A DNA stretch of 62,958 nucleotides, counting the filler, from Dugesia japonica (Eukaryota), in the NCBI GenBank assembly GCA_001938525.1. It is 6 parts of 6 records of this genome, joined end to end, with 100 filler letters (N's around TTAATTAATTAA, not from the genome) between each part and the next. Parts side by side here need not be neighbours in the genome. Positions count along the whole stretch, not along the records: positions 1 to 10,896 come from MQRL01625665.1; positions 10,997 to 21,537 come from MQRL01544052.1; positions 21,638 to 31,076 come from MQRL01609363.1; positions 31,177 to 39,719 come from MQRL01594548.1; positions 39,820 to 50,362 come from MQRL01571188.1; 1 more part is not named here. One strand, written 5' to 3'. Positions 4,549-40,264 of the stretch are shown here, in pieces. The notes under the pieces were generated by a model. That model saw nothing but the letters and a program-made list of their open reading frames with translations, was not told where the DNA came from and did no database searches. Positions within the stretch are counted from its first letter, which is position 1; every line of letters begins with the position of its first letter. The position numbers and the translations under genes were made by a program.

Positions 4549-5430
4549 AGTAGATAGATAGTGGTGGGGAAAAACAGCACACATTCAGTAACCCCTCCCC
4601 CCGTGTGTAAAAAGGATTACATAACTTTCCTAATGCAAATACTCGAAGACACACATTTGCGTGAATTACGTAACTGTTTCTCGTATTTTTTGAAAAAATT
4701 ACCGAATTATCGAGTTTTTAATTGAAGAGTAAATTTGTGTGTATTACATAACTTTCATTCGTATTTTTGACTAGTTTACTGATTTAATTGAATAGTATAC
4801 CTAATTATTTGAATGGTTTACCAATTTAATAAGTAGTTTACTGAATTATTTCAAATTTTATATTTTCTGGAAGTTTTGGTACGACATTTCTACGTTAAGG
4901 TTAATCTTGATTAATTATTTACTCACAAGGGTCAATTTCCTATGATTTGCGGTAAAGGTTTCCTCGAAATTAGTCAGTTTTGGACAATTTGGTCAATTAT
5001 TTACCAGTTTGGGTAAATTTAGTTAATTATTTGCTCACAAGGGTATTTTATATGTAAATTTGGTCTAATTTTTCCTCAGGATTGGTCAGGTTGGGTAATT
5101 TTTGGAAGATTTAGTCAATTATTTCCACATTATTGGTCAGTTTAGATAATTTTTTGGCGTTTTGGTGAATTATTTCATCGGAATTGGTAAGTTTAAGATG
5201 AATTATTACGGAAATTCATGGAAAAAGTAGAGTTTGTTTAAATTTTCAAGTTTTTAAAAATTATTTTAAACTATTGTGGTAAATTGGTGAAATTAGGTCA
5301 TTTTAGTTTAAATTTTCAAAATTTTTAAATAAAATTTTTATGGAAATCCGGGAGAACGTCTGAAATTTCGAAAAGATTTTCGAAAAAATTATTTCTCATC
5401 TTTACATAAAATAATCTTATCTATTAGATA
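4549..5430 (+). mobile_element. Polinton-type terminal region (AGTAGATAGATAG...), non-coding
   Basis: Starts AGTAGATAGATAGTGG. Colinear homology with 9487-10130 and 21487-21537. Internal iterated AATTATTTACTCACAAGG units. 5375-5430 recurs inverted at 7535-7590. Confidence 0.6.
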
Positions 5431-6898
5431 GACAACTCTTTGCTGATATATAAACCTAAAATCGTCAATTTTTTAAACAAGTCAAAATTTACAGGAACTT
5501 TTCTAAAATCATAAAATCCATTGTAAAAAAGCGGGTAAATAATTCTAAAATATACTAGAACTATTTCAAAATCATTTAAATTTTCCATAAACTTTTTATT
5601 CATCATTGAAAATTTCTACAAACGTTTCTAAAGCTAGTTAAAATTTACATTAACTTTTCTGTAATAATGATTCTAATACTGACAAGTGTCTATATACAAT
5701 CTATACTCAATCAATTGTACTATCAATCAAACCAAAACATGCAGTCAATCATTCACATATTTTTAATCTTAATATAATAACTGAATTTCGGTATTGTGTT
5801 TTGATTTTAATTCGAATTAATGGTCAAATAATATGAATGATGCATGTATTTTAATTAAAACTTTAAAACTAATAGTTAATTATATCAACATTTTTTATAA
5901 ATCTTGTTTAAATTCATTGTTTGATTTAAATGTAAACTTTTTAAATTTTAAAATTAAATTTGACTTGGTTCAAAAATTACAAATACAAAATAAAGATTAA
6001 ATTTTAAAATATGTGTAAATTTTCTTTAAGTTACTTAGAATTTTAATAAATTTATATAAAAGTTGAATAATTATAATAAGTTCCATAACCTTTCTTCGAT
6101 TTGATTAGATTTTCACCAACCATCCTACTTGATCATTAAAAAACAAGAATTATGCTTCCGATTTTAAGAATTATATGAAAAGTGTAATGAAATTAGGTGG
6201 GATATAACGATTGTATTAAATGTTCACCGTTTATTTTAATTATTATTAAAAATGTATACTTTTCACATAATTTAACTTGTGAAATTTGAATTTATATGAC
6301 TTTAATTATGATTTTATTGTTTCCTTTACGATTAACTTGATGATGATTATTAATTAATGATGAATTAAAATTTTGATGATTAGTTTAATAAATACAATTA
6401 ATTTTTTTTCAAATGTAATGTTATCAATTTAAATTTCATACTTACAAGTTTTCTCAGGGATCAACTAAAGTACTTAACTTTTCAATTTATTTAATCAAGG
6501 ATCAAGATTGGTGATTTTTAACCATGTTTTTCTTACTTAATATAAAATTATCCATCTAATAGATACCTTGATGTTCAAATTTCTTTCTAAAAGATGTTTG
6601 ACATCTTTTATCTATATTAATACTGATAATATTTACTATATTACAATTATACTATATTATACGTCTTCTACAAAGCTTAACAATTTTTAGATGAATATAT
6701 TTAGAATCAACAAAAAATTATATATCTAATAGATACTTTGATGTTCAAATTTGACTGACTTTTTATTTTTTCAAATTTCGATGGTTTATCATTAGAGAAA
6801 CCCATAATAACAACTTGTTTTTAATTTATTTCATCAATAATAAAGTTTGATGATTTTTATCCGTAATAATAATGATATTTGAAATACTTTCAATAACT

Positions 6899-6975
6899 GC
6901 ATGGTCCAGCGATAATAGCATTTCTTTTAAAGTTCATAAGTAGTGTTTCGATTCCTATGATTGTCGACTTATTTC
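6899..6975 (+). repeat. Possible tRNA-derived SINE head (degenerate)
   Basis: A-box-like TGGTCCAGCGA and B-box-like GTTTCGATTCC. The B-box plus tail (GTTCGATTTCTATGATTGT.GACT) recurs at ~8989-9015. Confidence 0.3.
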
Positions 6976-7619
6976 ACCCTTAATTTTTTCTTTATAACGT
7001 TTTATCCATAAGGTTTAGTGATTTATAATCATGTTTTCTTACTCAAACTAAACTTCTCTATCGGATAGACTGATTTATAATTATATTCCAGTTACCCTTT
7101 TGAAATTTCATTATTCCCTCTCGAACTTTCAAAAATGAAGTACATGTTTTTTCTATTTAACATTTTATCTATATAGTTTGGTGATTTTGGATTTACATAT
7201 TTGGAGTCAATGAAAGATTCTCTGTCGAAGATTCTCTGACCAATTTTAAGATACTTTTTCAATTTTCGAAAAAAGTTACCGAATCCGGGAGGACAGCTAA
7301 ATATCTTCAATAGGAAGTATTTTTACCAAGACGATATTTTTAAGTTTGCGCAGTCACTTTTTCTCGTGAGTAAAATAATACTAAATTTGAAACCATACGA
7401 GGTATATATTTAGAGAAAATTGAGCACCAAAATTCAAAATTTGAGATTTGTCACCACAAAACTCTTTTTATTTCATTCCAGATAAAATTTTGCGATTTTA
7501 GGTTTATATATTAGGAATCAGCAAAGAATTTTTTATCTAATAGATATAATTATTTTATGTAAAAATGAGAAATAATTTTTTCGAAAAACTTTTATTTGTT
7601 TAAAATAATTTCCATCAAA

Positions 7620-8180
7620 TTCTGATTCTATTGATGCAAAAATCTATCAACAAGAGCTACACCATAGAATAAAACGACTGAAGAAAGATGTTATCGACGA
7701 TGCCAATTATCTGATGAGACATTATGTCATGTCATTTAAAAATTCACTGTAAATTTAGAAATTATCCAATAAAGACATAATGCATAATTAAAACTAATAA
7801 TTAATGAATTGAATAATCGAGAAATAATGGTTGTGGTAGACCATATGTGTTCTATAGTCCCAGAGTCAAAAGAAAGAGTTGATTTAATGATAACCAATAT
7901 GGAAAAAAGCAAATATTTTAAGTTGACATTAAATGCCCTATTGATTCTATGCATAATTTCGAAAGGTTGATAGTGCAAACTTACAAAAATATGCCATTTT
8001 GATACAAGAAATACAATTAATTAAACAGGATTTCAAAGTGGAGTTACTAATCTGGATAACTTGGATCAATACAACCTTCAACAGAAAACATTCTTAAGAA
8101 AATTGGTGTGCAGAAATCTCAAATAACAAAGCTTCTGAAATCTTGTGCCATCTCAAACATGGTTTTTCAGCAAAATTTGG
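7620..8180 (+). mobile_element. Decayed C-terminus of an RLE-type (R2/NeSL/R4-like) non-LTR retrotransposon
   Basis: Across frameshifts: CYRRC...ETLCHVI zinc knuckle, RHN, GRPYVF, VDIKCPIDS..NFE, LGS. This is the order of the CCHC / RHN / PD / D-x-K restriction-like endonuclease motifs. Confidence 0.6.
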
Positions 8181-9108
8181 AATTTTCACAAAACTGGCAT
8201 AATACTCACTAAATCCATATAAAACAAAAAAGAAAAGGGCCTTGCTAAAAGTAAAATCACTATATATAAATTATTTTTACAATTAAAAAAATAATGAACA
8301 ACAAAAAGTAAACTTAAATAAATGAAATGAAAATATGTTTTATATAAATTGTAAATAACCGGGATTGCATAAAAAAATTTAAAAAATCAATTTATTATAA
8401 ATATATTGCACTCGACATTGATCGCTGTTGGTATTATGATTTGTTATCTTTTGATAAAATTTTTATTCCAGAATAAAAAAAACGTTAAATTTGTTTAAAT
8501 CAATAATTTATTACGTTTCCTTTTTGAAAATAATCTAGATTATGTTTACCAATTAATATGAATAAATTAACTAATAATTTTGATTGTGAACATATTATGA
8601 CTACTCCTAATGAATTTCACGCACAAACTTTCGTCAACAAAAGCTACAATGGTCAAATCTCTGATTCTTATCCTAAGCATGCCGACAAATGTAGTACTTT
8701 GAATTGGACTAGTTCTAAATCTGAATTTGGTAATTGAAATTCCCGAATTCAAAGGTTAGAAAGCCTGATTTCTAATAGTAATGATCAAATGCCTAAGAAG
8801 TTGTCAATTATCATATGCAGAAAGAAAAATTCGATTGGAATCGTCTATATATTGAAATGTTTTATTAAGCAAACAAACCTCTTATATTAAAAAAAGATTA
8901 ACATATATATTTATTAGTCCCAAACAGAACTCCTAATTAGAACTTATAAAATCAATCAAATTTGTTATATATAATAAATGTTTTATTGGGTTCGATTTCT
9001 ATGATTGTAGACTAATTTTACACATTGTTTATCGTATTTGTTAAGTCTCCTATAAATATTGACGATTTTAGATGATGATATTTAGAATCATCAAAAATTT
9101 CTCTATCC

Positions 9109-9180
9109 CAGGGGTCTCAAACTGAAGTAATCTCTCGGGTCGTATTAGACTAAATTCGTTAGTCCGCGGACCGCATTTAT
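9109..9180 (+). mobile_element. hAT (Charlie-like) terminal fragment
   Basis: CAGGGGTCTCAAACT terminus followed by a CCGCGGACCGCA subterminal motif. No partner end found. Confidence 0.45.
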
Positions 9181-9486
9181 ACCGTAACTCACTGTAACAA
9201 TTTTCTTCAATTGTATACCACACTATTGGTAATATTATTACTAATTATACGTATTATATTATAATATAATTATATTATATTGTATTTGTTAGTTATATCT
9301 GAAAAACAATTTATTATTGAATAAATGAATTATTTTCACCTATTAGCTGAAATTCTTCATTTTTATTTTATTTTATTATTCATATTATATGTTTAGAACA
9401 TTTAGTAGGCTAATTATTGTGTAGCATATAAGTATTATTCTAAAAGAAATAAAATAACCATTAAAACATTTATTCTAATAAATCTG

Positions 9487-10330
9487 AGTAGACGGATAGA
9501 AGGACACATAGCCAGCATACATTCAGCAAGCCCACCCCCTGTGTGTAAAGATTATTACATAACTTTTTCAATGTAAATACCCAAAGACATATGTTGGTGT
9601 TTATTACGTAATTATTACATAATGGCTATAAATTTATGTTATTTAGGCGGCGACACACATTTATATGAATTATGTAGCTATTTCTCATATTTTTTGAAAG
9701 GTGGACCGAATTATCGGGTTTCTAATAGATGAATAAATTTGTCTTTATTACATAACTTTTGCTCGTATTTCTTTTTTAAAATATTTTCTGGATTATTTTA
9801 TAGGACATTTACACGTTAGGGGTAATCTTGATTTATTATTTACTCACAAGGTCGATTTCCTATGATTTGGGGTAATAATTTCCTAAGGAATAGTCAATTT
9901 GGGTCAGTTTGGATGACTTGGTCATATATTTACTCGGTTTGGACGATTAAGTCCAATTATTTACTTTTTATAGGTAAACATGGTTGATTATTTACTCACA
10001 AGGTCAATTTTCTATGATTTTTGAGCAAACCCTCGGGTTGGTCTGTTTGGGTAGAATTTTTTACGGAAATCCATAGGAAATAGACAAATTTGTTTATATA
10101 ATTCAAAATATTAAACTTTTTATAGGAATCAGGGTATACATCTTCTCAAAATAGGTTAAGAAAATGTTTTTTTTGATGGAAAAGTTTTCTCTGAGTTCAA
10201 ATATGTTAACCTAAAATCACCAAAGTTAATACTTGATGAAATAAATGAAGATTTCTGGTGATTAAATTTCAAAATTCAGAGTTTAGTACTCAGAACTCTG
10301 TGCTCAGATAACAGCTATTGACTCACATTT
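9487..10330 (+). mobile_element. Second copy of the Polinton-type terminal region
   Basis: Starts AGTAGACGGATAG. Alignable to 4549-5350 (CCCCC.GTGTGTAAA, TTACATAACTTT, ACCGAATTATCG, TTATTTACTCACAAGG blocks). Confidence 0.6.
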
Positions 10331-10545
10331 GATATTATTTAACTCAAAAGGGAAATAAAATACAAGTACTTTATCTAGTATAATTCAAATAAATTTAATT
10401 GAATTTAAATTAATTAATTTTTAAATAACTTTAATAAGAATTTTCTAGAATCAATTGTTTAAACTTATCAATGTATTTAATTAATACACACCTGTTCTAA
10501 AACTTATATAAATTGAATCTCAAATTCATTATTCATTATTTCAAA

Positions 10546-10896
10546 ATGAAGATCATTGAAACTCTTACCAAGGAAAATTCTTCTACACTTGTATTCGAGT
10601 GTGAAAAACCAAGAAATTACTTCAAACATGAGATGTTTTTCTTTAAGAGAACATTCAATTATATTTTTCAAGTAATATTTGATTTGCTAATTACTTTATT
10701 AATACATTTTTATTTAGAATCCTGTTAAAGTGAAACCTTGTGTGTATGATTTATACATATATGAAATAAGTGACAATGATCAAAAAACTCTTAATGAACT
10801 ATTCGTAAGAATCAGTGGTCGTATGAAAATTGAAGATGCAACATTTATTAAATCTAAAGAAAATAATGTTCAAGAAAGTAAATCAAAGATTACAGT
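10546..10896 (+). CDS. Unknown spliced protein, truncated by the assembly linker
   Basis: ATG at 10546. A phase-0 46-nt intron GTAATA...TATTTAG (10672-10717) joins ORFs 10513-10728 and 10730-10948 into one frame. Confidence 0.4.
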
Positions 10897-10996: not shown

Positions 10997-12484
10997 TTCT
11001 CAAAATAATTATAAATTCAAATATTGATCCTATCGATTGATTGGGGATTTTCCATGAAATATTTAATAATGTTTTGTTTGAATCTATGGATTTTGTAAAA
11101 TTCAATATTTTTATATTATCTAAATTAATAAATCAATAATTTTATTTTTATTTATTTAATTATAATTATCATCATTATAAGTCACATATATATGAATTTT
11201 ACATGTATAGAATTCTTTTTCAGATGTTTCTCCAATATTTTCATTTCGAAAAGTCTTCATTTGTCTCTCAACTCGTATTTTAACAATGTAAATAAGATTC
11301 CTAGACAAATTTGACAATGCTTCATTTGTCCTATCTAAAAAAATTTTATATTGCAAATATTTTTTTCAATTAACATAGAAAATGATCAATTATATTTTAT
11401 AAATTTTAGAACAGTAATAAATAATAAAGCAATACAACGTTAAATATTAGTTATATCAAACAGAAATCAAAATGAAAATCCATTCTATTATGCTATTAAA
11501 AGAGAGGGTATGTTTAGAAAATATTTAAAATTATCAAAACTGGATTTCCATCAACATAATATGATAATATAAATTTTAGAGTCCTGGTATTATAATAGAT
11601 AAAAATATTTATATTCATTGACGTGTAGAGTCATACTTTGTAAGACAAAATGTACGAACATATTCAGGTTCTTTTATAATTTTTACAAATTTTCATTCAT
11701 TTTTTCTTGGCGTAATTTGTTGATAAATTTTCTATAAATATTATAAACGTATAAAAAGCCTAAAATATTCTTTACATAACTTGACTTACTGAAATTTGGT
11801 ATGGCTTCAAATAACCTACTTTCATTTTTGAATAGCCGACCTNNNNNNNNNNNNNNNNNNNNCCTGCTCCCGGATTTCGTTTAATACTTCCTTGTTGATT
11901 GCACAGCTTCATAACATTAAAATACAAATATAATAATAAATGTCAACCAATAGTTAGAGATTTTATTCTTAATATTCTTCAAATAAAAATTATTTAAATA
12001 AACTTTATTGGTTAATGTTCTTTGCTATTATTTTCAAACATTTCAAAATAAAATGTCGGGAAATCACAATAAAGGCGCTATCAGTAAAGTAAATTTATTG
12101 GGTTTTTTTAAATAAAATTCTTAATTTTAAATAAAATTCTTAATTTTAAATAAAATTCTTAATTTTTAAATTTTTTTAACAACATTTTCAATAAAAAATC
12201 AATTTATTTAATAATATTTTATTACTGTTACCTATAAAATCAAAGATGTTTTTCCAACATATTTAAATTTTTAATTTTAGATTATAATAAAATTTTTTAA
12301 AACCTATGAAAATGGAAATTTATTTCAAAAAATAAAATACAAAACCCATAAAACATTGTGAAAATAAAAATTGAAAAATCACTTTATATCCAAAAAAATT
12401 TTTAAAATTTTTGAATTAATTTTATTTAATAATTAAGAATTTTATTTAAAAAAATTAAAAATTATATTTAAAGAATTAATTATG

Positions 12485-13300
12485 AGTAGATATATAGTAG
12501 CGGATCAAAACACTTGCAGTTATCGCGCACATCCCGGGAGGGCTTGGAAAGACATTACGATTGTGTTATGATTTTTGTGCTATGATTTTTTGAATAGTTT
12601 TTTTTTCTAAAATTTTTGGGATCAGATAATTTTTGATCGGATCATTTATTTTTATCCTGTTGGTGCGTGTGATTATTTTTAAATTTTAAAATTTCTGTGT
12701 TTGGGTTTTTAAGGTGTTTTATAAAAAGTAGGTCAAGTTGAGTTTGCATGTGTTGTTGTGTGTGGTGTGTGAAAGAACGGTTTTAGACTTGAGGAGGAGC
12801 TGGAAATCTTGGAAATAATTTTTTTGGAGTTTTTAAGATTTTGTTGTTATTGGAAAAATATTTGGTCTTTATATTGTCTAAAGGACTTATAGGGTTGGAT
12901 GGATTGATTTTGCTAGAAGTGTGGTAGCACATCAGATCAGTCGTATGAGTTATCGTAGTGGTTTATTTTGGGAGGCTGTAGGTTTGTATGTGGTTGATGG
13001 AATTTGTTGGTTGATGTGTGGTTTGAGAAGTAATGTAATGGAGAAGATCTTGAATGTCGAATGTGCTTTGATTGTTTATATTAAGGGCTTGAATTTGATT
13101 GGTTATGTTTTGCAAGTAGTATTAGTGTGTTAAAGAAATTTTTCGGGAAGGGGACAAAGGTATTTGTAGAAAGACAATTAATTATTAGTTTTTAAAGATT
13201 TATTTGAAATTTTTCATGAGGTGGGGTATGACGTCATAGTCTTTTGAAATCTTTATTTTAGTTAAAAATGCTGTATTTTGCTTAAAATGATGAATTTCCT
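12485..13300 (+). mobile_element. Polinton left terminus and subterminal region
   Basis: AGTAGATATATAGTAGCGG... The first ~170 nt are homologous to the reverse complement of 39820-40009 (CCCGGG core, GATTGTG.TATGATTTTTGTGCTA, TTTTTGATCGGATCA). Leads into a repeat array and a pPolB remnant. Confidence 0.7.
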
Positions 13301-13499
13301 GAAAGTAATATTATTTTTGTAAAAATGATGAATTTTTGAATATTTTTGAGTATTTTTGAACAGGGAAGATTTGTTTTTTAAATATTTTTTCAACCAGGAA
13401 GAGGGAAGTCTTGATATTTGTTTTATGAGGGAAATTCAAAAATTTATTTTTGCATGGAAAATTTAAATTTTTTTGAGGAGAATTTATATTTATGTATGA

Positions 13500-13815
13500 G
13501 ATGGAGCAGTCTTGATATTTAGCATGGTATTTATGCATGGTATGGTCAGTCTTGATATTTTGCATGGTATGGGCAGTCTCTATTTTTTACAAGGTATTTA
13601 TGTATAGTATGGGCAGTCTCTATAATATTACAAGATATCCGACAGTCTTGATATTTTGTATGACATTATAACAATATATCGGGCAGTCTTGATATTATTG
13701 TAGGATATTGGGTAGTCTTGATATTTTAAAGAGATTGAAGCATTATCAATTTTTTAAAAAATATTTTTGCTTTAGATGGAACAGTCTTGATATTTTGCAA
13801 GGGATGGGACAGTCT
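13500..13815. repeat. Degenerate ~27-bp tandem array (GGGCAGTCTTGATATTTTGCATGGTAT)
   Basis: CAGTCT(TGATATT) recurs about ten times between the Polinton terminus and the pPolB remnant. Confidence 0.8.
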
Positions 13816-14148
13816 AAAATTTATAGACATGTGATTTTCATTGTATGTATGTTCCATATGAGTTGCATTTGAGTTGCATTTGAGTTGCATACCAATTGAA
13901 TTTATTAAAAATTTATTTTAAAAAATCAATAAAAAATCAAAATGACGGCTATGTTGAGTTTTAAAATTTTTTTGGTGGGAAATGTATTAAAATATCTCAA
14001 ACGCATGATTATAAGTGTATGTGTGTTGCATTCTCATAGCATCTAAGTTGCACAAATATTGCATTTATTAATAAAAATTCCCAGGAATGCAATTTTCAGT
14101 GTATATGTGTTGTATTCTCGTGGCATCTGAGTTGCATATATATCCATA

Positions 14149-14293
14149 ATATCCATTAAAAAAATCAAAGAGGGAAGTCTTCGCAATATTTTCATGATAA
14201 AATATATCTATCAAAAAAGAAGATTTTTGATATATATGTTTTATCATGTAGATTTCACAAATTCTCGCCTCTTTGAAGTTTTTTAATGGATAT
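14149..14293. repeat. ~145-bp imperfect palindrome
   Basis: Left arm ATATCCATTAAAAAAATCAAAGAGG...CATGATAAAATATATCTATCAAAAA pairs with right arm TTTTTGATATATATGTTTTATCATG...CCTCTTTGAAGTTTTTTAATGGATAT. Confidence 0.8.
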
Positions 14294-14349
14294 ATTTTAA
14301 CATGTAAATATCACAAAGACTCCCCTCTTTGAATTTTTTTGATATAAAA

Positions 14350-15720
14350 TATGTGTTTTTGTTACTAACAACATGGTGTTTATTTACAAAGGTTAGTCTG
14401 TCTTGTATACCCTATTCAAAAAAGGTATATATATCATTATAAGTCAACAATTCGATTGGCTCATTTAATGAAATCAATGCAGATGCCAACTCATACCCGG
14501 GATGCCGCGGAATGATAATGACTCCAAATTATTGTGTGCCAATGATTTATTTCTAAACTCATGAAAGAATTCGGCTTACAAAAACCAATCTAGTTTCAAA
14601 TATACTAGCATATAATCCAATAGATAGTTGTACCCTTTTATAGTCTACATTTTCACAGCCTTTTGATAATCTTGCTTACTAATTTCCTCCCATCTTGGTG
14701 GTATTGCTGTTGTTTGAACAACAACTTGCAAACTGATTGCATAATTATAAGAAAATATCCCCTTTGACATTGTTATTCTCCAATCTCTAAATTCATTTGT
14801 TGTGTCTTTTAAGGATTTAACTGCTGCATTCCATGAAAAGTTTATAAATTGGTACGAGTAAATAAATCTGATTCTAATTTCCAATATCCAATGAGGCATA
14901 TGATTTTTTTCTGATGTTTTTGGTATACATGATATGATCCAATGCGGAAATTTATTTAATCTATACTTTAATATGTGGTGAAGATCATATCCTATCAAAT
15001 TTTGGAAGACTGCTGGTAATTGATAGTTGATTCTTCTGCTTAAATTGTATTTATTACAGGCCACTCCTACATACTTGCCTGTAAAATGATCATGATCCTG
15101 AACTGGATTACTTAAAGGATTTTTACACAAATTACATATTGTACTATGTTTAAATTTCATTTCTTGATCCGGGTTTATAATTGGTTTTCTTTTCCTTCTT
15201 TGGGTATACTATATTATTGCCGATTTCCTTCACTGCCTTTATGAAGTCATATACGCATTCATTTACAATTAACTGACTGTATTTCACTTCATGAGTAAAA
15301 TTATTTGGCAACAACAGCTTGGTAATACTGATTCAAAACCAGCATAAATAACAAAGGGTGGAGTTATAGTTTTTGAGCAATCTTGAAATTCTAAATTCCT
15401 TTCTGTTGGCATCTTGTATAATGTGGTTACCGTCTGAATTTTCTCAAAAATTGGTTTATGAGTATTGTAAGCCGTATTATCCCTGAATCCGCTATTACAA
15501 TTTTCACACCAAATTGATCGAATTTGAACACCATCCTTGTGAATAATTCTGTCCATCAATCTATTCAAATTCATTACTGAAGTGTAATGAAATTTGTTGG
15601 CATCTTCCAATAACAATAATTTGATCTTTTCTCACGTGTAGACCGATGTATAATATCTAAATTTGGATGCTTCATGATAACATCATCATCGTCCTCAACT
15701 GATTGAGATTTACATGAGAA
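14350..15720 (-). pseudogene. Polinton protein-primed DNA polymerase B remnant (copy 1, truncated before motif A)
   Basis: HYTSVMNLNRL, WCENCNSGF, PFVIYAGFES (ExoI), CNLC...VQDHDHFTGKYVGVACNKYNL (HNH/EndoVII-like insert), FQNLIGYDLH (ExoII), KGIFSYNY, then LTFVNKHHV. Many stops and frameshifts. Confidence 0.85.
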
Positions 15721-16036
15721 AACATTAATTAATAAGACTTATAGACCTACATGATGGACATATGTAATTTGTTTTCTCATATAAACACTGACCATAATAC
15801 TTTTCCGTAGTACTATGGCAGTCACCTTTATAAGTCTGATTTACACAATATAGTTTGTACATTGTACAACATTCTGGAAAAATTATATTTATTACCTTTT
15901 ATAAAATTATTAAAATTTCATTTAAAAATTAACATAAAATAAATTATAAAATAAATAAAAACAAACTTTTATCATGAATAGAAGCAGTAAAAAAGGAGCA
16001 TCAACAACAGAAGCATCGTCATTCTAAAATAATAAA

Positions 16037-18496: not shown

Positions 18497-18531
<35 letters not shown>

Positions 18532-20050: not shown

Positions 20051-20065
20051 TTTAAAATATAATAA

Positions 20066-27799: not shown

Positions 27800-30680
27800 A
27801 TGATTGGATTGAATTTTTTATTCTATGAATCGTTATTTATTAATAACTTTAATCTGAGTAGTGGTAAAAAGTCGGGAATGGGCACCTTTCCCCTTTTTAT
27901 ACTCAATTGTTGTCAGTCAAAGGTGATTTTCCGTAGCAATATAATGGTGATGTTCATATTTAATATCGTTTTTATACAAGAATTGATCAAGTGAAAAATC
28001 ACCGTTGGCAGTACCCCAAATGGAAAATCATTGTTTGAGTGCCAATAGTTGAGGGTAGGGGGGTGATGTGCCCATTCCCGACTTTTAAACACTACTCTGC
28101 AGCAATCTATAGTGCACTACGTAATTGTTCTTCGAGTAGTTCGTTAACATTAATTTCTTCACTTTACAACCTGGAGCGCTTCTATGTTCTACTNCAACCG
28201 GTAAATCATTCAAATAATCATGAATATCTGCTGGAATCACCATGTACACCTCTAGAGTGTATCCATATGACAATGATTCTAGGTCTGCATTTTTACACTC
28301 TTCCAAAATCCTATATAATCCATCATAAACCCTTTCAAAGTTAGAAAAGGGAAAACTTTGACAAAGTGCCCAACCATATAGATTATTAATATCTATATAC
28401 AAAAGATCAACATTTTCACTGGTGGCAACATGGTGCTTGTTAACAAATGTTAACCCTCTTCTTATACCTCCTTTGAAAAAGGTATACATATCGTTATCTT
28501 GGAGCAACTCAATTGGTTATTCCAATGACATCAACGCAGATGCGCATGACATTCCAGGTATTCCGAAAAAATTCAACCGATCCAAGTGTTGTGTGCTTAA
28601 GACTTTGCATGGAGTTGCTGGAAACAAATCAGCTAATAAATACACACCCAGCTTTAAATATACCATCATATAGTCCAGCAAATTTGTACAGTTGAATATT
28701 TCTCACATCGATCATGCTTTTCCATACTATTCCATACTAACATCCTCCCATTTTAGTTGCATTTGCTTTGTTTCTTCCAGAACCTGTAAGCTCTTTGCAT
28801 AACTGTAAGGAAATATCCCTTTTGAATTGGTAATAATCTGATTCTGAAACTCCTATGTAGTCAAAGATGTCGCTTTTAAGGATTTAACAGCAGAGTCCAA
28901 TGAGAAATATATGAATTGATAACTGTTGGTGAGATTAATTGTTGTTTTATTTTGCCGTACAATTAAACAGAAATATTTTTGATGTTGTTGGGATGCATGA
29001 TATGGCCCGATTCTTGAACTTGTTAATACCATACTTGAGGATATGATGAAGATCATATCCTCGTAAATTATGGAAGACCACTGGTAGTTGAATATGCAAT
29101 TGTCTTCTTAAATTGCATTGGTTGAATGCTGCTCCTCTATATTTCCCTGTGAAATGGTCATGGTCACGAACGATATCTCTTATTTCCTTCTTACATAAGT
29201 AACAAATTTTTTCAGATTTGAATTCTTTATCTTTTTTTTTATTTTTTTCCCTTTCGTTTTATAATAAAGAAACACAATGTTTTCGCTTATTTCCTCCATA
29301 ACCTTTAAAAACTTATACACACAATCATCTCCAATAAACTGTCTGTATTTTGTTTCGTTGGTAAAATTATTTACCAACAGCAGACCAGCCAAAACATGTA
29401 AATGTTTCGGGAAATCTTCTAGTCTGGAGGTAAAATCGACTTAAAATCCGCATATATCACAAAAGGTGGTGTTATAGTCTTTGAATAATCCTTAAAACTT
29501 AAGTTTTTCTCCAATGGCATTGTATACATTGAGGCACCTGTCTGGATATTTTACAAATAGGTTCATGCTTCTCATATGCTACTTCATTTTTGAATCCATT
29601 GAGACAGTTAGGACACCATGTTGATTGAATGCGAACACCATGTCTTTTATTATCCCAGTTCATTAGGCTATTTAGATTCATTACTGCGGTTTAATGAAAT
29701 CTGTTGTTATTTTTCAGTAATAAAAGATATATTTTCTCTCCATCTATTACTTTTGATCGGTGTATTATATCCAAATTTGGATGTTTCATGATTTTTCATT
29801 CTCCACTGATTCTTGATTCCATGATAGGACATTGTTGAATAGTCCTGAATTATTCTTCTCAAACTTTGGTATATCAATCAGTTTCATCGGCATATTCTCT
29901 TCATCATGTATTTTTTATATAATGCTACGCGGTTTTTATTCCTTTGTCTAACTTGATCACCTTTGGTGATAGCAAGAATACTGTTAATAAAACAGTAATT
30001 ATCATCATTCTTGATGTTTACAATTGCTTCTTTCCTTTTAAATCTTCCGGCGTTGGAATATAACTTTTCCTGAAAGTCCACAAATATTTGCAATCTTTGT
30101 GATTTTGAAATTAATTTCAAGTATTCTGTTCAACATCCAACTAGAGCCTAGTTCGCTTCTTATTGTTATTTTCTCGTGTAATTGTTTGATACCATCTTCA
30201 AAAAAGTTATCAGTTAATTCAACGGCTCTATTTAATATCCTACAGGTTTTAAACTCAAATTCTTCTCCATTAGCAGTTGTTGTTAATAATTTGAACTCTA
30301 CATGTATCCAAAATTGTATTTTAACTTTCTTCATTTTTTCTATTGACTGAAATACGTTGTTTACTATAGCTTCTGTTAACATTATTTCAAGACAATTCTA
30401 TTTTGATACATTTATTTTAAGTATTCTATGATAGCGATACAAATCCAATTCTATAATAACTCCATCATCCAAAGTATTATTTGTTGATCCACCAACTTGA
30501 TTATTTTCCTCTTCCATATCGATGACCTCATGTAACACAATATCTTCTTCATCAAGTTCATCAAGTGTTTCAAAACTGAACCATCATTACTTCGGTAAAG
30601 TGCGGCAGCATATTTCCAAAGCCAGTTGAGCACCTCTTCTATGGTGCAGAGCTTTGGATGTTTAACCGATTTGGATGCAG
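27800..30680 (-). pseudogene. Polinton pPolB remnant (copy 2, same subfamily as copy 1)
   Basis: N-terminal region with QVGG, GSSWMLNRILEINFKI, AIVNIKNDDNYCFINSILA, WCPNCLNGF, VRDHDHFTG, FHNLRGYDLH, KGIFPYSY, GIRRG, YIDINNLYGWAL (motif A), YVVHYRLLQ. An IHRI-like remnant lies beyond the MITE. Confidence 0.9.
27857..28096. mobile_element. 240-bp MITE with AGTAGT termini inserted in pPolB copy 2
   Basis: 29-bp TIRs AGTAGTGGTAAAAAGTCGGGAATGGGCAC / GTGCCCATTCCCGACTTTTAAACACTACT (2 mismatches). CTG on both flanks. Confidence 0.85.
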
Positions 30681-31176
30681 CAACTTTATTTTATTAAAAT
30701 TTTTATAACACTTAAACAATTGTCTTCTACAAGTCATCATAAGGAAAAGATTTAAACTTCCAAATGATCACAAAAACATCGCTTTTATTATTAATTCCAG
30801 TAAAATAGAATTCTTTCTTATCAAAATACCAGCGACTGGGGAAGTGCAGAATAATGTAACTGTTATAGAATATCCAACCGATAATCTGGATGATGAACAT
30901 TTGCTAGTACTCCAACGGTTAGCATCAAACTCTCATAACATGGCACAGTAATCAGAAAATCAATTTCAAATTACATCTGATTTTAATACTTGGAAACATT
31001 GAGATGAAATAACTTTGCAATATTTACGTAACCATGGCATTCATCAAAATATTCCCTCTGATTTTACATAAACGAANNNNNNNNNNNNNNNNNNNNNNNN
31101 NNNNNNNNNNNNNNNNNNNNTTAATTAATTAANNNNNNNNNNNNNNNNNNNNNNNNNNNNNNNNNNNNNNNNNNNN

Positions 31177-31547
31177 AAAATAAAAATCGACCCCCCTAGT
31201 TATTAAACCAAACTAATTACAAACATAAAAAGGGTAAAACCCCAACAAAATTACAATCAACAATAGGGTAATGGAAAGTTATTTAAGGATAATCGTGCAA
31301 GTTAATGTTGATTAGAAAGTTAAGCGAGTATCATGTGAACGAACCCAAACTAAAGGAATGCGAGTCTGTACTCGGGCTATGAGTCAACGGCTTCATTCCG
31401 AAGATCTGAATTTTTGGGGGACACCAGATTTAAATTCATCGCGGGGTTTTTACCAAATCAATGATCCTAGACCTGATTTTATATAGAGATGGACCCCCTA
31501 GAATTAATTACAGAAATCACCAACAAAAAAAGGGTAAAACCCCAACA
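31177..31547 (+). mobile_element. Right ends of the TGTTGGGGT...ACCCCAACA LTR-like family
   Basis: 31330-31460 is highly similar to 34700-34830. Two AAAACCCCAACA ends at 31247 and 31547. Confidence 0.65.
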
Positions 31548-32269
31548 ATAAAATAATTCAGTAAATTAATAAAGCAACACGATAATCAGAAGACAGTGTT
31601 GATATTAAATTAATATTTTAAGCAGCAGAAAATTGCTACAAAAATTTAATTAATTATTAAAATAAGTAAGGTGATTAGCAGGTAGCATTTCAGATACAAT
31701 AAGTTAGGAATAAAAATTTATAAATTAATTAATTAAAAAATATTTAACTATTTTATTAGGAAATAATTTTTCATAGAAATAAATTATTTATTTTTGCAAA
31801 AAAGCTATCACAGAAAAAATAGAGTCTTCAGTGAATGAAAAGTGGCAAATAAAAAATTTCTGATTTGAAGAAATATGTGAATCCGAAAATCCAACTTAAA
31901 CGTTAATAGCATAAACAGAGAAAAGGTTATAAGGCTTTTAAAGAATGAAACTATGAGAAGGGGCTAATGTAACACAGAAAGAAAAATGAGCCAGTCAAGA
32001 TTTCTAAACTTTGGAATCTAAGAAATTTAAAAAAACTTTATTTGGAAACACTTCTCAAATCAAGAAGATAAGATTATTAGGTTATTAGTTGCAGAAAAAA
32101 GATAATTTTTATGTTTTTTGTTGGTTTATTTTATTGTTTAATGTTATTTTTTATGTATATTTAAAAAGTTTAAATGATTATTGTCATACTGTAATAATAT
32201 TAAATTTTTTATGTGTAGAACAAATTATGGAAGCTAAATTAACAAAAAATGAAAGTTGAACGAGTTCTA

Positions 32270-32520
32270 ATGAGTGGCCGGGCAGGTTCATTCGATCGAT
32301 CAGTAGCTGTTGATTTTAATTTAAAATACACACGGAGGAACCAAATTAACCAGACAACTGTTCAGAGGCTAATAAAATGTTTTAAAGAAACAGAAAGTGT
32401 AGCATATAAGCCTTGAACAGGCGGCCCACAATTAGTAACTGATGAAGCGAATGTGACAATGGATTTGGGTGAAGTCGTAATGACTCCAAAGAAGTCTTTA
32501 CGAAAACTTATTTCTAGCTA
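32270..32520 (+). pseudogene. Mariner-family transposase N-terminal HTH fragment
   Basis: TTVQRLIKCFKETESVAYKP*TGGP...TPKKSLRKL matches the KF.ETGSV..RxGRP...SPxKSxR pattern. Confidence 0.6.
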
Positions 32521-32561
32521 GATCTGTTTTTAAGTGTACCTTATTTTTATATTGTTATCAG

Positions 32562-35260
32562 CAGGGCTTTGGAGCAGTCCAATTTTTGATCGTGCTCCGC
32601 TCCATGCTCCAAGAACAATTTATAATAAATTACACATCTACAAACGTTTTAAGAAAAGAATTTTTTTACTGTAAATTAACTAAATAAACTTTATTTTAAG
32701 TTGTTACATATATGTACTAATTACATACAAACGATATCAATTTTCGTTATTTATTCTATGAAATAAAACTACTGAGAGTAAGTCTTCTTTCATTATAATT
32801 TTCTTTCATTATTAATTTGAGAGCTGAAAACAGTCTCTCAACACTTGCTTGAGTAGTGGGCATATTGGATGCAACTCGACATGCATCTTGAATTCATTCC
32901 AAATAATTTTCAATTGCCTTGAAGACTGATTTAACTTTGAACCTACCCATGCTCTCCATGATTTCACAATCTTCATTAAAAAATCGTTCAAACTGATCTT
33001 TTAAAGAATCTATGCCTATGGCAGTTGCATAACTATTTCCTTGTCTATCTGATTCGACTGTTACTAATTGTAGTTCTTTACTGGGTTGCAATTTATTGAA
33101 ACGTCGATAAATATTTTGTTTCTCAAGCCTTTGGGCGATATTTAAGAGTCCTTCTTAAGCTTTAATTGAACTTAGTAAAATCCTATAGCGTGGATCAACA
33201 TAAACTCCAGCAAAGAAATGTGTGTTTTTAAAAAGATTCTCTTCGCGTTTTCGCTGAAGGATACCATTTCAAATGCAAATTAGACTCGTACTTTCTTCCA
33301 TAAATTTGTTGGGGTAAAATGCTTGGTACGGAAAATAAAAATGGTGTTAAGTAGACTCGAAATTATAAAGATTGTCCTAAGAAAAGAAAACGAAGTATTA
33401 AGACATAAGAAAGACATAATTCCGTTGAAGGAAGAAATAATAAAAGAGAAAACCGGATTAGGAAGCTAAAATTTATGCGATAACCAGAATAATCTAGAAT
33501 TTCAGAAGGAAACAAATCAGAAATACAAAAGCCAAAGAAGGAAAGGAGTATTAAAAGCGGTTATCAGAACAAAGAAAATAACGAATAACAATTAGTTTAT
33601 TAGACAGATTAAGAAAATCCTGTGAGTTAAAGAAATAGAAAATAAATTAAATGAATTAAATAGTGGAAGAAAATCAACGAAATTAAATTAATTCTAGACC
33701 CGAAAATAAAAATGAAAATCAAATTAATATTTTAGACGAAAATAAAATAAATAATTTATTTTTTTAAATAAAATAAATAATATGAATTAAAATGATTTAT
33801 TTTAAAGAAGAAAATTAAATTTTTTACAAAAATTAGAAAAATGAAGATTTTTCTATCAAATTAAAATTAGCATTTAAGAAAATTATAGACAAGAAAACAT
33901 CGGGGAGACCGAAAATTTCAGTTAAAAATCATAGCAAGACTAGGAAAGAAGATACAAAGGTCTGAAGGTTAACCAACCAATAAGAAGAATCTTGTGACAG
34001 AATTCAAATAAACCGACCAATAAAACAGCAAGAATGCATATTAATCAATGGAAGGAACGAGGGTTTAGAAGAAAACCGGTATAAATGCCGATGTAATTTT
34101 CATTAAAAATTGGCTTAATCAATAAAAAACTTTGTACTCATCGAAATTTTAATATTGGATCGAAATGTATCTCAAGAGGTAATTATCGGTTTTTTACAAA
34201 AAATGTGTTTTGTAACGGTTTCCGACCCCAAAACTTATGGAAAATGCATGAAGTTAAAAAACGAATTCCATTGGGTTATCAGGAAGATTTTTGTTGCTCT
34301 GTGTTGTTGCTCCGGATTGATTCGCGCTCATGTAAGTTCTGATTATTATGTAATTTTAAAATTTTGCTGTACCCTATATTAACAATATATGTTTCATTAA
34401 CAAAGTTTTGTATTATTAATTAGTTGGTTAATTTTTCTTGAATTTTAGGAAGTAATCATTTCGAAATTAAATTATCAAGGGTAATAAATTTTTAATAAGT
34501 GATTAATTAAATTTTCCAAAACCGCCAACTATTGAGTAATTCTTCCTGTAATATCAAAAAACACGTAAAAGTTGTTACTCACTAAGATTGAACCAGATAA
34601 TAAAATAAAGACTAATAAACTCCGCACAAAGTGGAGATATAAAGAATTAAGGAGTTATAAGAAAATGACTAGTAAGAATTAAGAATATCTTGAGAATCAA
34701 GCGAGTATCGTGAAGTATGAATCCGAACCAAAGGAATGCGATTCTGTTCTCGGATTCCGAGTCAACGGCTTCATTCTGAAGATCTTGATTTTTGGAGACA
34801 CCAGATTAAATTCTTCGAGGGGTTTTACTAGGCCGTTTACCCTAAACTTAATTACTAAAAATTCGACCCATCTAGATAAAACCCCAACAAATTTACTTAA
34901 ATAATTTAATAAATAAATTTAAATAAATATGTAAGTTGTCAAAATTTTTATTTTCAGCTTTCTCGACAAAAAACATACCATAACCTGAAAATTCATAAAC
35001 ACATAAAATTAAATGAAACAAAATAACATCAAAACAAAAATTAGAGTAGATTTTTAGATATGTACGCAATGTATGTATGTACTAGTTTAGTACATCTACT
35101 TAAGTACATTTAGTAAATCTATTACATAATGTATTTTTTTAATAATCTGAAGCAGTGGAGCAATCAAAATTATTGTGCTTTGATCTCCTCTCCAGCTTCG
35201 TGCAAAACCTTGTGCTCCGATGCTCCGCGCTCCAGCTCCGGGCTCTGCTCCAAAACCCTG
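32562..35260 (-). mobile_element. hAT transposon (internally deleted) with a nested LTR-like insertion
   Basis: TIRs CAGGGCTTTGGAGCAG / CTGCTCCAAAACCCTG. Perfect 8-bp TSD GTTATCAG (32554-32561, 35261-35268). GCTCC subterminal repeats. Dimerisation-domain remnant PTTQASVERLFSALK at ~32820-32865. Confidence 0.92.
33307..34889 (+). mobile_element. 1.58-kb solo-LTR-like element
   Basis: TGTTGGGGT...ACCCCAACA termini, 4-bp TSD AATT, internal CCAAT, TATAAA and AATAAA. Interrupts the hAT element. Confidence 0.8.
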
Positions 35261-35842
35261 GTTATCAGTTCCAAATATTATGTCTAAGAACATCTTACTT
35301 ATTATTTTTATTTCACATATGAATTGAATTGAATTATGAGTAAACTATGAATTTAATTTTATTATTAAATTATTTGTCTTTATCCTTTAACTATTTAATT
35401 ACTAATATTGTAATCATTTAGTTGCTAATGATGAGAGGAACACGGAATCTTCGATACAGTTGCGGGATTGAATTTAATCTGTTGATAATTAATGAACAAT
35501 GAGATGAGAATTCTGACGTATGAGTTAACATTAACATTTTCGTCCTAATCCTTAGTTAAATTTCTTCATTTTGAAAATATTTAATTTTATTTTTTTTAAA
35601 ATTAAATATTTAAACACAATGAACCTTTCTACTGTAAATGTAAACAAAAAATCATTAATTTCACTTTATTTAAACAAACAATTTAATTCCCGGTCGATTA
35701 CATAATAAATGACGCAATTATTTTCCTATCGCCTCCCATGAAAAATTCCTGAATCCGTCGTTGCATATATAGGTAGCTTATGATTATAACTAATTAATTT
35801 ATGATATATGAGTAGATAGAAATAACCCTAAATTAGGACAGG

Positions 35843-36338
35843 GTTTGGTGCAAAATGTAAAATGTCAAATTTTGGTTCAAAATTTAAAATGTCAAATTTT
35901 GGTGCAAAATGCAAAATGTCAAATTTTGGTGCAAAATGTAAAATGTCAAATTTTGGTGTAAAAATGCAAAATGTCAAATTTTGGTGTTTGGTGCAAAAAT
36001 GTCAAGTGCAAAAATGTCAAGTGCAAAAATCAAGATGCAAAAATCAAGATGCAAAAATCAAGATGCAAAAATCAAGATGCAAAAATCAAGTGCAAAAATG
36101 TCAAGTGCAAAAATCAAGTGCAAAAATGTCAAATTTTGGTGCAAAATGTAAAATGTCAAATTTCAAGTGTAAAAATGCAAAATGTCAAATTTTGGTGTTT
36201 GGTGTAAAAATCAAGATGTAAAAAATCAAAATGCAAAATCAAGATGCAAAATCAAGATATAAAACCAAGATGTAAAAATCAAGATGTAAAAATCAAGATG
36301 TAAAAATCAAGATGTAAAAATCAAGATGTAAAATGTAA
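35843..36338. repeat. Composite tandem array: 27-bp AAAATGTCAAATTTTGGTGCAAAATGT and 14-bp AAAAATCAAGATG(C/T) units
   Basis: Near-perfect units are directly visible. ORFs 35862-36221 and 35971-36207 are just translations of this array. Confidence 0.9.
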
Positions 36339-36410
36339 AAATAATTTAAGAGGAAAAAATTTAAGAGGTATGATTAAATTTTTTATAATAAAAAAAGAAG
36401 AAAATAAAAA

Positions 36411-39400
36411 ATGCCTCCATTAAGATGTCCTAATTGTGATAAACCATTTAAAAATAAACGTGGATTAAATTCACATATTCAATCTAAAAATTTTTTTGCT
36501 TTAGATCCAAATGATTATATATTTTGTGGAATGTGGGATAAAAAATTTAAAACTCAAACCGCTTTAAATATACACAAGACTAAAACTAAATGTGGTAGCA
36601 TTGATTTATATTGTGAACTTTGTGATAAACATTTAGCAAATAAAGAATTATTAAATGAACATATGCGAAGTGAAAAACATATGAAAATAGTTATGAGATT
36701 AATAAAAAATTTTAAAACAAGACCAAAACATATTAAAGAAGTGTTCACAAAAGAATTATATCCACATTATAATATTAATATATTTTTAAATAGTAGATTA
36801 CAAATGACAAGAAATGTTCAAAGATATAATTTATCAACACTTGATAGGACTAAACCAGGATTGGAAAAAATTATTAGAAAGTTTTTTACATTAGGTCATA
36901 AATTTAAAATTAGAATGGGAGTTAATTGTCAATATAGTAAAGAAGGAAAAATAGCTACGTTTTATTCTTACACTACTAATAGAAAANNNNNNNNNNNNNC
37001 TTCAATACCTAAAAAACTAAATCAAATGTTAGAAGAAGTAGAAAGATATATTCGTGATAAAGATCGAAAAGAATCTAATTGGAACATGGATCTTATAATT
37101 GATTTTAAAATAGAATTAAAAAATATCAATCATTAGTTGGAGCAACATATTGCAAATTACCATTTAAAAAATATGGAGTTATTAATATTGAAAATCATGA
37201 TGATAAATGTTTATTATATTCAGTTCTTGCACATAAACATGTTTTACCACATGCAACACGTGTAGGAAATTATATTCCATATTTACCAGAATTAAATATA
37301 ACAGGAGTGGTCTTTCCATCAGGAAATTAGAAAAGTTAAATAACTTTAAAATAAATGTTTTTGAATTAAATGCACCAATTCGTATTTCACATTTTGATGT
37401 AAAACCAAATCCTGAAGANNNNNNNNNNNNNNNNNNNNNNNNNNNNNNNNNNNNNNNNNNNNNNNNNNNNNNNNNNNNNNNNNNNNNNNNNNNNNNNNNN
37501 NNNNNNNNNNNNNNNNNNNNNNNNNNNNNNNNNNNNNNNNNNNNNNNNNNNNNNNNNNNNNNNNNNNNNNNNNNNNNNNNNNNNNNNNNNNNNNNNNNNN
37601 NNNNNNNNNNNNNNNNNNNNNNNNNNNNNNAATAATTATTTTAAAAATAAAATACCATTTGTAATGTATTGTGATTTTGAATGTTACACAAAAGAAAATG
37701 ATATAGAAGAACCAATAAGTTTAGGAATATATTTAAAATCAGATTATCAAAATTTATTTGAAAGTAAATATTATCAATTCTTAGGAGAAAATGTAGTTAA
37801 TGATTTTATAAAGTTTCTTGAAGATGTTAATAAAAAATTTAAAGATGTTATTTTTAAAAGGTTACAAAAAGAATTTACAGGAATATGTCCAGAATTTATA
37901 CCTAACACAAATTGTTATTATTGTGAAAAACCAATAACAGAAAATCCAATTAAAGATCATAATCATTTTAATGGAGAATTTCGTTGCTATGCACATTCAA
38001 ATTGTAATCTTCAAGATAAAAGTAAAAGAAACTTATTTATACCATGTTACTTTCATAATGCAATGGGTTATGATAATCATTTATTCTTTAAACAACTTTT
38101 AAGAAAACATCCAAAAGAAATAAAGAAAATAATTCCACATTCTGATGATCGATATATTTCATTTCAATATAAGAATATTAGATTTCTAGATTCTTTTAAA
38201 ATATGTAAATCATCAGTTGAGAAAATGGGTGAAACACTAAGTAAATCAGGAAATCATGAAATATTAACATCTTACAATTTAAGACCTAAAAAAGCCCATT
38301 TTCCATATGATTATGTAAAAGGAAATAATATTAAAAAAGTAATGCAATTGTTAAAATCAAATAGAATGCCAACACAAAATGATTTCTTTAGTATATTAAA
38401 ACAAAAAGGAATATCTAACACAGAACATGATGAATTTTTAATAGACTATTTAGATTTTAATAATCTTTGGGATTACATGTTACACTACATGAAATTAGAT
38501 GTATTAATTCTAGCAGATTATGTAGAAAACTTTAGAAATATTTGTTTAAACTTTTATAAAATAGATCCAAGTTATTGTTATTCAGCATCAGGTTTAACAT
38601 GGCAAGCTGGAATGAGATTTACAAAACAAGAAACTTATGATACATTTTTAAAATTTGAACGTGGAGTTAGAGGTGGATATTCTGGTGAAGAAGGTGAACG
38701 TCAAGTATTTTCACATGATAAAATTAAAGAACCATATACTAGACAATTAAATATTGCAGAGTATGAAGATATCTTAAAAATGTTTAATGAACATGAATTT
38801 CTTCCAGATCAATATATTAATGATTTAATGGAAGATAGATTTATAAAATATTTAGATGCAAATTCTTTATATGCAAGTTGTATGACAAAACCATTACCAA
38901 CAGGTGAATTTATCGAATGTAACGAGCTAACATATGAAACGTCAACAGATGAAATGAATTATCTTTATGAAGTTGATTTAGATTATCCACCAAAATTACA
39001 TGATAGAACTAAATATTTTCTATTAGCACCTGACAGAATACTTATTACAGATGATATGTTAAGTAATTATCAAAAATCATTTAATAAAAAATTATCAGAT
39101 AAAAATATTAAATTAACAATGAATCAGCTTGATAAGAAAAATTATATTATACTTGGATCAACATTAGATTTATATTTAAGTTTAGGAATGGAATTAAAAA
39201 AGATTCANNNNNNNNNNNNNNNNNNNNNNNNNNNNNNNNNNNNNNNNNNNNNNNNNNNNNNNNNNNNNNNNNNNNNNNNNNNNNNNNNNNNNNNNNNNNN
39301 NNNNNNNNNNNNNNNNNNNNNNNNNNNNNNNNNNATGGTAAAACATTAGAAAATATTAGAAATAGATGTAATGTGTTTATTGTAGGAACTGATAAAGAAT

Positions 39401-39719
39401 ATCAAAATCTTAAATCTAAACCAATTTATTTAAGTTGTAAAAGTTTCAATATAGATGATGAAATTGTTGATACAATGGCAGCAGTTCATTTAACAAAAAC
39501 AAATTTAAATTATAATAAATTTCCATATTTAGGATTTACAATTCTTGAATATGCAAAAGAAGTAATGTANNNNNNNNNNNNNNNNCAATTAGAACCAGAA
39601 GTAGGACAAGATAATTATAAAATTCATTATTCAGACACGGATTCCGTATTTGTTGAGATAAAACATAGAGATAATTTAGAAAAATTAAATAGATTAACAG
39701 GAAATGATTTATTTCAGAT
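36411..39719 (+). CDS. Protein-primed family B DNA polymerase with three N-terminal zinc fingers (Polinton/adintovirus type); near intact, 2 frameshifts plus gaps
   Basis: CPNC..H, CGMW..H, CELC..H..H fingers. After a shift at ~37120: GATYCKLP...INIENHDDKCLLYSVLA. Then YCDFE, CYYC...KDHNHFNGEFRCYAHSNCNL, FHNAMGYDNH, FLDSF, FPYDY, YMKLDVLILAD, RGG, YLDANSLY, YGKT, YSDTDS. Confidence 0.93.
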
Positions 39720-39819
39720 NNNNNNNNNNNNNNNNNNNNNNNNNNNNNNNNNNNNNNNNNNNNTTAATTAATTAANNNNNNNNNNNNNNNNNNNNNNNNN
39801 NNNNNNNNNNNNNNNNNNN

Positions 39820-40264
39820 AAAAAACTGATCCGATCAAAAAAAATTGATCCGATCAAAAATTTTTTGATCCCAAAAATCTTAGAAAAAAAAACTTATCCC
39901 AAAAATAGTAGCACAAAAATCATAGCACAATCTTAATGCGTTTCCGAGCCCCCCCCCGGGGGGTTCGCCCAGCGCTATGAATGTGCTAATGCGCTACTAT
40001 CCCTCTACTCTGGAAAGAAATANNNNNNNNNNNNNNNNNNNNNNNNNNNNNNNNNNNNNNNNNNNNNNNNNNAAAAAAACTGATCCGATCAAAAAAAATT
40101 GATCCGATCAAAAATTTTTTGATCCCAAAAATCTTAGGAAAAAAAACTTATCCCAAAAATAGTAGCACAAAAATCATAGCACAATCTTAATGCGTTTCCG
40201 AGCCCCCCCCCCGGGGGGTTCGCCCAGCGCTATGAATGTGCTAATGCGCTACTATCCCTCTACT
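39820..40264 (-). mobile_element. Polinton right terminus (...CTACTATCCCTCTACT), assembled twice (39820-40009 and 40073-40264)
   Basis: Reverse complement begins AGTAGAGGGATAGTAG and matches 12485-12655. Contains a CCCCCCGGGGGG palindrome and GATCCGATCAAAA repeats. Abuts a Gypsy integrase. Confidence 0.8.

Follow-up and report, generated by a model that had tools for sequence, protein, structure and literature searches.

Broken and nested Polinton remnants of two pPolB lineages, with short gene-less AG-ended elements, in Dugesia japonica contigs

The window analyzed here is a stretch of 62,958 nucleotides of Dugesia japonica DNA (assembly GCA_001938525.1; 26% G+C). It is made up of six contigs of 8.5–12.5 kb (contigs 1 to 6: positions 1–10896, 10997–21537, 21638–31076, 31177–39719, 39820–50362 and 50463–62958), joined by N44-TTAATTAATTAA-N44 linkers. 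A fragment of Frizzled (Pfam E 4e-12) and a protein kinase split by an intron, both in the window, suggest an animal host. The window carries three remnants of pPolB, the polymerase gene of Polintons (Mavericks), remnants of the Polinton packaging ATPase, adenain and integrase genes, and ten distinct termini of the AGTAG type (Table 1). Distances across the linkers have no biological meaning, so that the 36 kb over which a first-pass annotation had spread these features are five separate pieces.

On contig 2, a single strand carries pPolB, the packaging ATPase, adenain and a protein-X-like gene in a 6.4-kb stretch, with four remnants upstream of pPolB on the minus strand. The ATPase remnant was matched by 6 of 63 candidates, all of them PF04665 or close kin, with 70% identity in the middle frame. 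The adenain remnant aligned with P0053, a Peptidase_C5 protein (E 2e-6, above the cut-off), at 76 and 70% identity in two frames (E 2e-14). The gene family of the remnant at 19594–19819 has a protein-X-like C-terminus (Adeno_PX E 0.0015 in the relative P0056, below the cut-off). No tblastn match was obtained at 19318–19518. A segment at 19049–19264, read by eye as a capsid N-terminus, gave no capsid profile score and is the protease. In Polintons the ATPase and adenain have no role outside virion assembly, which makes a capsid-encoding parent the likely ancestor of the contig-2 element.

The first-pass annotation had recognized neither a capsid gene nor a Polinton-type integrase. No capsid gene was found here either, on weak evidence; an integrase remnant was found on contig 1, just outside the annotated region. 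It lies directly left of the 4549 end, is truncated there on its 5′ side, and its catalytic core is absent. The piece at 4375–4542 reached a profile independent E-value (iE) of 1.9e-6 window-wide, and the other pieces (profile positions 290–311 and 309–351) were weak alone (local iE 1.4 and 0.06). The ATPase, the C-terminal half of adenain and an integrase with a chromodomain, all Polinton features, are each present as remnants. A 587-bp insertion in the integrase remnant (3722–4308), flanked by 10-bp direct repeats and weakly matching an FKBP-type isomerase (Pfam E 0.047), is possibly a host-gene retrocopy. The frame at 3404–4423 had no homolog among 398 candidates, and the Atlas was blank.

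The three annotated pPolB genes were confirmed as remnants (iE 3e-44, 2e-52 and 3e-108) with a profile built from fetched relatives. Remnants 1 and 2 are 65% identical in DNA over 1388 bp. Remnant 1 is broken by stops and frameshifts (5 stops in 259 codons) and its C-terminal part is absent; remnant 2 has 5 stops in its longest frame, and its C-terminal part was not found in the window. The third, pPolB 3, has a 524-codon stop-free core, a frameshifted 5′ third and assembly gaps, and is cut by the contig end. The best identity of the window cores to any relative fetched was 33–40%.

A FastTree tree of 76 sequences (3 window frames and 73 references; P0006, P0014, P0032, P0036 and locus ORFs shorter than 600 residues left out), midpoint-rooted and with weak deep nodes, separated two lineages. 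Remnants 1 and 2 are sisters beside L031/L032 (support 0.998). pPolB 3 falls with P0001, P0002 and P0008 (support 1.0), and a larger clade (support 0.907) joins these to L002 and L018, which carry double jelly-roll (DJR) capsid matches (E 3e-47 and 2e-49). L031 encodes an ATPase, an integrase with chromodomain, a protease and a gene clustering with DJR capsid proteins; this last gene was not directly recognized by Pfam, and a PDB sequence search returned 0 matches. The pPolB 3 relatives P0006 and P0014 bear precomputed Pfam marks PF14528 and PF14890, which we take to be homing-endonuclease and intein families. An 80-codon open reading frame (ORF) at 30709–30948 (plus strand), directed away from pPolB remnant 2 and without a family match, may be an accessory gene.

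All 11 annotated termini begin with AGTAG (AGTAA at 16037) on the strand assigned to them. The motif AGTAGAKRGATAG was matched nine times at up to 1 mismatch, against 0.09 expected, and at least nine matches were seen in 0 of 100 shuffles; the pattern was derived from the same sites, so that this control somewhat overstates the significance. Eight of the nine matches are annotated ends, and the ninth (40942), inside a Gypsy integrase, is attributed to chance. The end at 35811 fits only at 2 mismatches (17 matches vs. 3.0 expected), and 27857 and 28096 (AGTAGTG...) fall outside it and match each other (77% over 78 bp). The ends at 40009 and 40264 are two assemblies of a single end, separated by a 50-N gap and 99% identical over 204 bp with the same flank, which leaves 10 distinct ends where about ten had been annotated.

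As first proposed, the ends form five subterminal families, spread over five of the six contigs: A (4549, 9487 and 21487), B (12485 and 40264), C (16037 and 18236), D (27857 and 28096) and E (35811). Families A and B have their first ~28 bases in common. Terminal inverted repeats starting with 5′-AG, a Polinton feature, are present (10 ends, 2 pairs). Only these two pairs close within one contig, and pPolB-bearing elements show one end each; for the 4549 end, neither a matching outer right end nor a target duplication was found. G precedes 6 of the 10 ends on the inward strand (binomial p ~8e-4, post hoc), often within CTG, ATG or CAG, and may reflect a target preference. An extra degenerate end-like motif (2 mismatches) lies at 27326–27338 on the minus strand; its partner was not found.

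Other mobile genes or elements are interrupted at four ends: 4549 cuts the integrase remnant, the 16037–18236 element lies within the contig-2 element, 28096 cuts pPolB and 40264 cuts a Gypsy integrase. These data suggest that (i) the window very probably holds broken, nested Polinton pieces of two pPolB lineages, together with short gene-less AG-ended elements likely mobilized in trans; and (ii) what is seen is the usual decay of a known type of element, standing out chiefly for a copy number that is likely very high. Polinton identity, end diversity and a large radiation, all claimed at first, are supported. As for the two explanations offered then, heavy decay of virus-like Polintons is borne out by the ATPase, adenain and protein-X-like genes beside the contig-2 pPolB and by the contig-1 integrase, and a reduced pPolB-centred lineage on contigs 2 and 3 is contradicted by that ATPase and protease.

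From what is known of the family, intact parents would have been copied by protein-primed synthesis from a short terminal repeat, would have integrated via a retroviral-like integrase that leaves 6-bp duplications, and would have built capsids. Copies would then have landed within each other and within other transposons, and genes would have been lost through deletion, stops and frameshifts. Elements keeping only their ends could still be moved, in trans.

Table 1. Polinton-related features of the window
Feature	Position	Strand	Remarks
Polinton-type integrase, C-terminal part with chromodomain-like end	3600–4542	-	three colinear pieces, contig 1
Family A left end with subterminal repeats	4549–5473	+	inverted partial copy at 7367–7593
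Second family A left end	9487–10355	+	65% identical to 4549 end over 446 bp; non-coding
Family B end with long strand-skewed subterminal tandem-repeat region	12485–14343	+	abuts truncated pPolB
pPolB remnant 1	14352–15895	-	iE 3e-44; endonuclease VII-like domain (Endonuclease_7 E 0.0013)
Gene-less 2.2-kb element, family C	16037–18236	.	nested in contig-2 Polinton
Adenain (capsid maturation protease) remnant, C-terminal half, frameshifted	19062–19198	-	tblastn with P0053
Possible remnant of small gene preceding major capsid gene in L055/L059/L060	19318–19518	-	local iE 0.018 only
Conserved small Polinton gene remnant	19594–19819	-	tblastn E 3e-12 to 2e-9
Small basic ORF	19859–20050	-	62% identical to P0051
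A32-type genome-packaging ATPase remnant	20069–20719	-	phmmer best E 5e-57; stops and frameshifts
Third family A left end	21487–21537	+	cut by contig end
240-bp element, family D	27857–28096	.	78-bp inverted repeats; at break-off of pPolB remnant 2
pPolB remnant 2	28088–30382	-	endonuclease VII-like domain; sister of remnant 1
Family E left end	35811–36410	+	27-bp and 14-bp tandem repeats
pPolB 3	36411–39693	+	N-terminal C2H2 zinc fingers; separate lineage
Family B right end, assembled twice	39820–40264	-	inserted in Gypsy-type integrase gene

Several observations weigh against this reading. For none of the pPolB-bearing elements does the window contain both ends, and the integrase remnant shares its contig with no pPolB. 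The assignment of families A, C and D to Polintons would rest on the terminal motif and context rather than on gene linkage. A 6-bp duplication was found for one of the two paired elements, and its sequence, AATAAA, is also a common word here. The nearest relatives of pPolB 3 (P0001, P0002 and P0008) are known only from contigs of 3.6–4.9 kb. Neither major capsid nor penton remnants were detected in the window with profiles or with tblastn (17 capsid and 14 penton-like ORFs, 92 loci), and the capsid profile found 93 of 100 intact 60-residue pieces in a leave-one-out control.

The best capsid match had an E of 0.087, compared with 0.56 on the reversed window; a weak capsid-like match at 23174–23302 (E 0.16 window-wide), given by just one of the 17 queries, was rejected. 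In the leave-one-out controls the penton-like cluster profile found 35 of 71 intact 60-residue pieces. The protease profile found 30 of 46 intact pieces, yet it missed the real protease remnant, which was revealed only by a close relative, so that the lack of a capsid match, in contigs that break off at about 10 kb, is weak evidence. Pfam, run on 60 chosen window ORFs, returned no capsid, ATPase or protease; it also missed the true ATPase remnant, and its blank results therefore carry little weight. Only contig 2 shows much sequence around pPolB, with ~700 bases upstream on contig 3 and none downstream on contig 4.

The contig-4 pPolB family is the one for which copy number was estimated. The segment 35400–39719 was matched at ≥85% likeness by 9,292, 14,504 and 15,714 contigs in three DNA runs from three studies, and the summed word depth over most of the pPolB 3 core was ~4,000–43,000. 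Summed depth is not a copy number, being inflated by overlapping short contigs, and one run may be the source of the assembly; the family is therefore taken to comprise, likely, hundreds of divergent copies, perhaps more. At single positions of the contig-4 stretch, up to 68–81 different contigs carry another letter. A public contig of depth 21 covers the 35811 junction with 0 differences. Depth over the contig-4 subterminal repeats was far lower (60–650), which fits many subfamilies with different ends. In one RNA run, 144 of 13.6 million reads matched, none of them 99% alike and all partial, which gives no evidence on expression.

Such numbers are compatible with a different history for this family: a capsid-less, polymerase-centred element amplified within the cell with an integrase borrowed in trans, the contig-2/3 family being an older canonical Polinton. 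We regard this as improbable, and give the same low credence to its fuller version, in which the zinc-finger pPolB lineage would be a capsid-less self-synthesizing transposon of hundreds of copies or more that drives the gene-less AG-ended swarm with resident integrases. pPolB 3 does begin just 600 bp from its end, has a stop-free core and likely exists in hundreds of divergent copies. It makes up a separate clade together with P0001, P0002 and P0008, the neighbours of which are not visible, and the window has yielded no capsid gene. However, the contig-4 stretch ends inside pPolB, so that nothing downstream is visible, a pPolB beside one end is the usual Polinton layout (e.g., L061), and the wider clade includes the capsid-bearing L002 and L018. 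The capsid-less reading survives for the contig-4 family only.

The first-pass annotation had also suggested mobilization in trans, which seems to apply to the gene-less elements but not to the pPolB-bearing ones. The family C element ends in imperfect inverted repeats of 23 bp, contains a 192-bp inverted repeat and satellites, and has no recognizable gene. It is flanked on both sides by the 6-bp direct repeat AATAAA (chance at a given place 0.003–0.004), and is likely a non-autonomous element. For the family D element no 6-bp target duplication was found, its flanks being AATCTG and CTGCAG. The gene-less elements likely owed their movement to intact copies at other genomic sites, acting in trans. 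To the left of 35811, a very high-depth repeat (35544–35800; summed depth up to 39,000) is 73% similar over 90 bp to 16306–16392 in the 2.2-kb element, and from this likeness family C may be abundant.

Alternatively, some of the AGTAG ends (families A, C and D) might belong to unrelated cut-and-paste transposons lying beside Polinton debris. Families A, C and D enclose no linked Polinton gene, the flanks of D share only CTG, and Tc1/mariner elements with CAGTAGAG ends exist (PMC3014272). A TA-flanked CAGTAG end would, however, need a preceding TAC, and TAC precedes 0 of the 10 ends. Of the first 30 bases, two of the three A copies have 22–24 in common with the B end at 12485, which adjoins pPolB, and C has 19–20 in common with the B end at 40264; the C element also has its 6-bp duplication. 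We judge this explanation unlikely, and slightly more so than the capsid-less one.

That the density of ends was inflated by the assembly, in which six repeat-rich unplaced contigs are linker-joined and N gaps separate duplicate copies of the 40009/40264 end and of several other blocks, is very improbable as a full account, since ten distinct ends are left after merging, the 35811 junction is spanned without differences and thousands of contigs from the runs of three studies (one possibly the source of the assembly) fall on pPolB 3; it tempers the density figure, not the existence of the radiation.

The Polinton remnants most resemble Polintons whose pPolB carries an endonuclease VII or HNH domain (adintoviruses; metagenomic loci such as L031, L055 and L060), with which they share pPolB, the A32 ATPase, adenain, a protein-X-like gene and the chromodomain-bearing integrase, along with ends of the AG type and, in one of the two paired elements, a 6-bp duplication. 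In contrast to these loci, only fragments are present here, no capsid or penton remnant was seen, and the contig-2 element has its ATPase upstream of, and on one strand with, pPolB, an arrangement that differs from L055/L060 and L031. Short non-autonomous Polinton-N elements in Repbase also keep their ends, have lost the replication gene and likely move in trans; no novelty is claimed for non-autonomous Polintons.

Polintons measure 13–25 kb with 5–8-bp duplications, some pPolBs having an HNH domain (10.1101/2023.08.22.554363), and by definition encode pPolB and an integrase (PMC5499653); adintovirus accessory genes include protein-X-like domains (PMC8502044). Among vertebrate Maverick loci, 96% of 3,511 are degraded, with AGT/AG-repeat ends and 6-bp duplications (PMC8097293). 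The D. japonica remnants share with them stops, frameshifts, insertions and short repeated AG/AGT ends, but their ends read AGTAGA(T/G)(A/G)GATAG rather than AGTAGT or AGAGAG, and their copy load looks higher than 3,511 loci over 143 species. polB-less mobile polintons of butterflies (10.1101/2025.02.07.637071) likewise keep their ends, have lost the replication gene and likely move in trans; unlike them, the C (2.2 kb) and D (240 bp) elements are without any recognizable gene, and their mobility is inferred from one duplication. Transpovirons and linear plasmids (PMC5499653) are similar in their linear form with inverted ends and in lacking capsid genes, of which none was found here; in contrast, remnants of an ATPase and a protease persist in the contig-2 element, and the ORFs scanned included no superfamily 1 helicase. 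In the parts of the literature searched, with the founding 2006 paper and Repbase outside the search, the phrase non-autonomous (or nonautonomous) Polinton or Maverick was found in one paper, for Tlr1, and none of the titles concerned an AGTAG end motif. Further background sources were PMC6431247, PMC3014272 and 10.1101/2024.01.15.575659.

With this window, the known class gains two divergent Polinton lineages and, likely, a non-autonomous family without genes. It is also a warning that missing capsid or integrase genes in decayed, fragmented assemblies can easily be detection failure. If hundreds of pPolB copies are indeed present, D. japonica would be a good host for asking whether such elements spread by reinfection or intracellular copying: reinfection predicts capsid genes about as numerous as pPolB, and intracellular copying far fewer.

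Scanning viral contigs for pPolB 3, for the ATPase by its alignment and for the L031 gene of the capsid cluster returned no locus, and five loci with the terminal pattern in viral contigs were taken as chance. Of 83 stretches from a genome-contig scan, one was a decayed ATPase with uninformative neighbours.

Other mobile elements share the contigs. Gypsy-like remnants (40180–40990, 45088–45642 and 47544–50171) comprise two integrases, a gag zinc knuckle and a reverse transcriptase. Integrase matches at 40180–40860, 45088–45642 and 26249–26698 were rejected as Polinton-type and are read as Gypsy-type by sequence context, with a purine tract and TG after 40180–40860 and the gag knuckle and reverse transcriptase on the same contig. 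A decayed Tc1/mariner with 59-bp inverted repeats and transposase remnants lies at 24711–26071, and a hAT dimerization-domain remnant (Pfam E 0.025) at 32759–33270. A 130-bp direct repeat (31322–31450 and 34699–34826) has its copies 3.4 kb apart, and 22090–23874 contains blocks duplicated across N gaps with ORF-like pieces.

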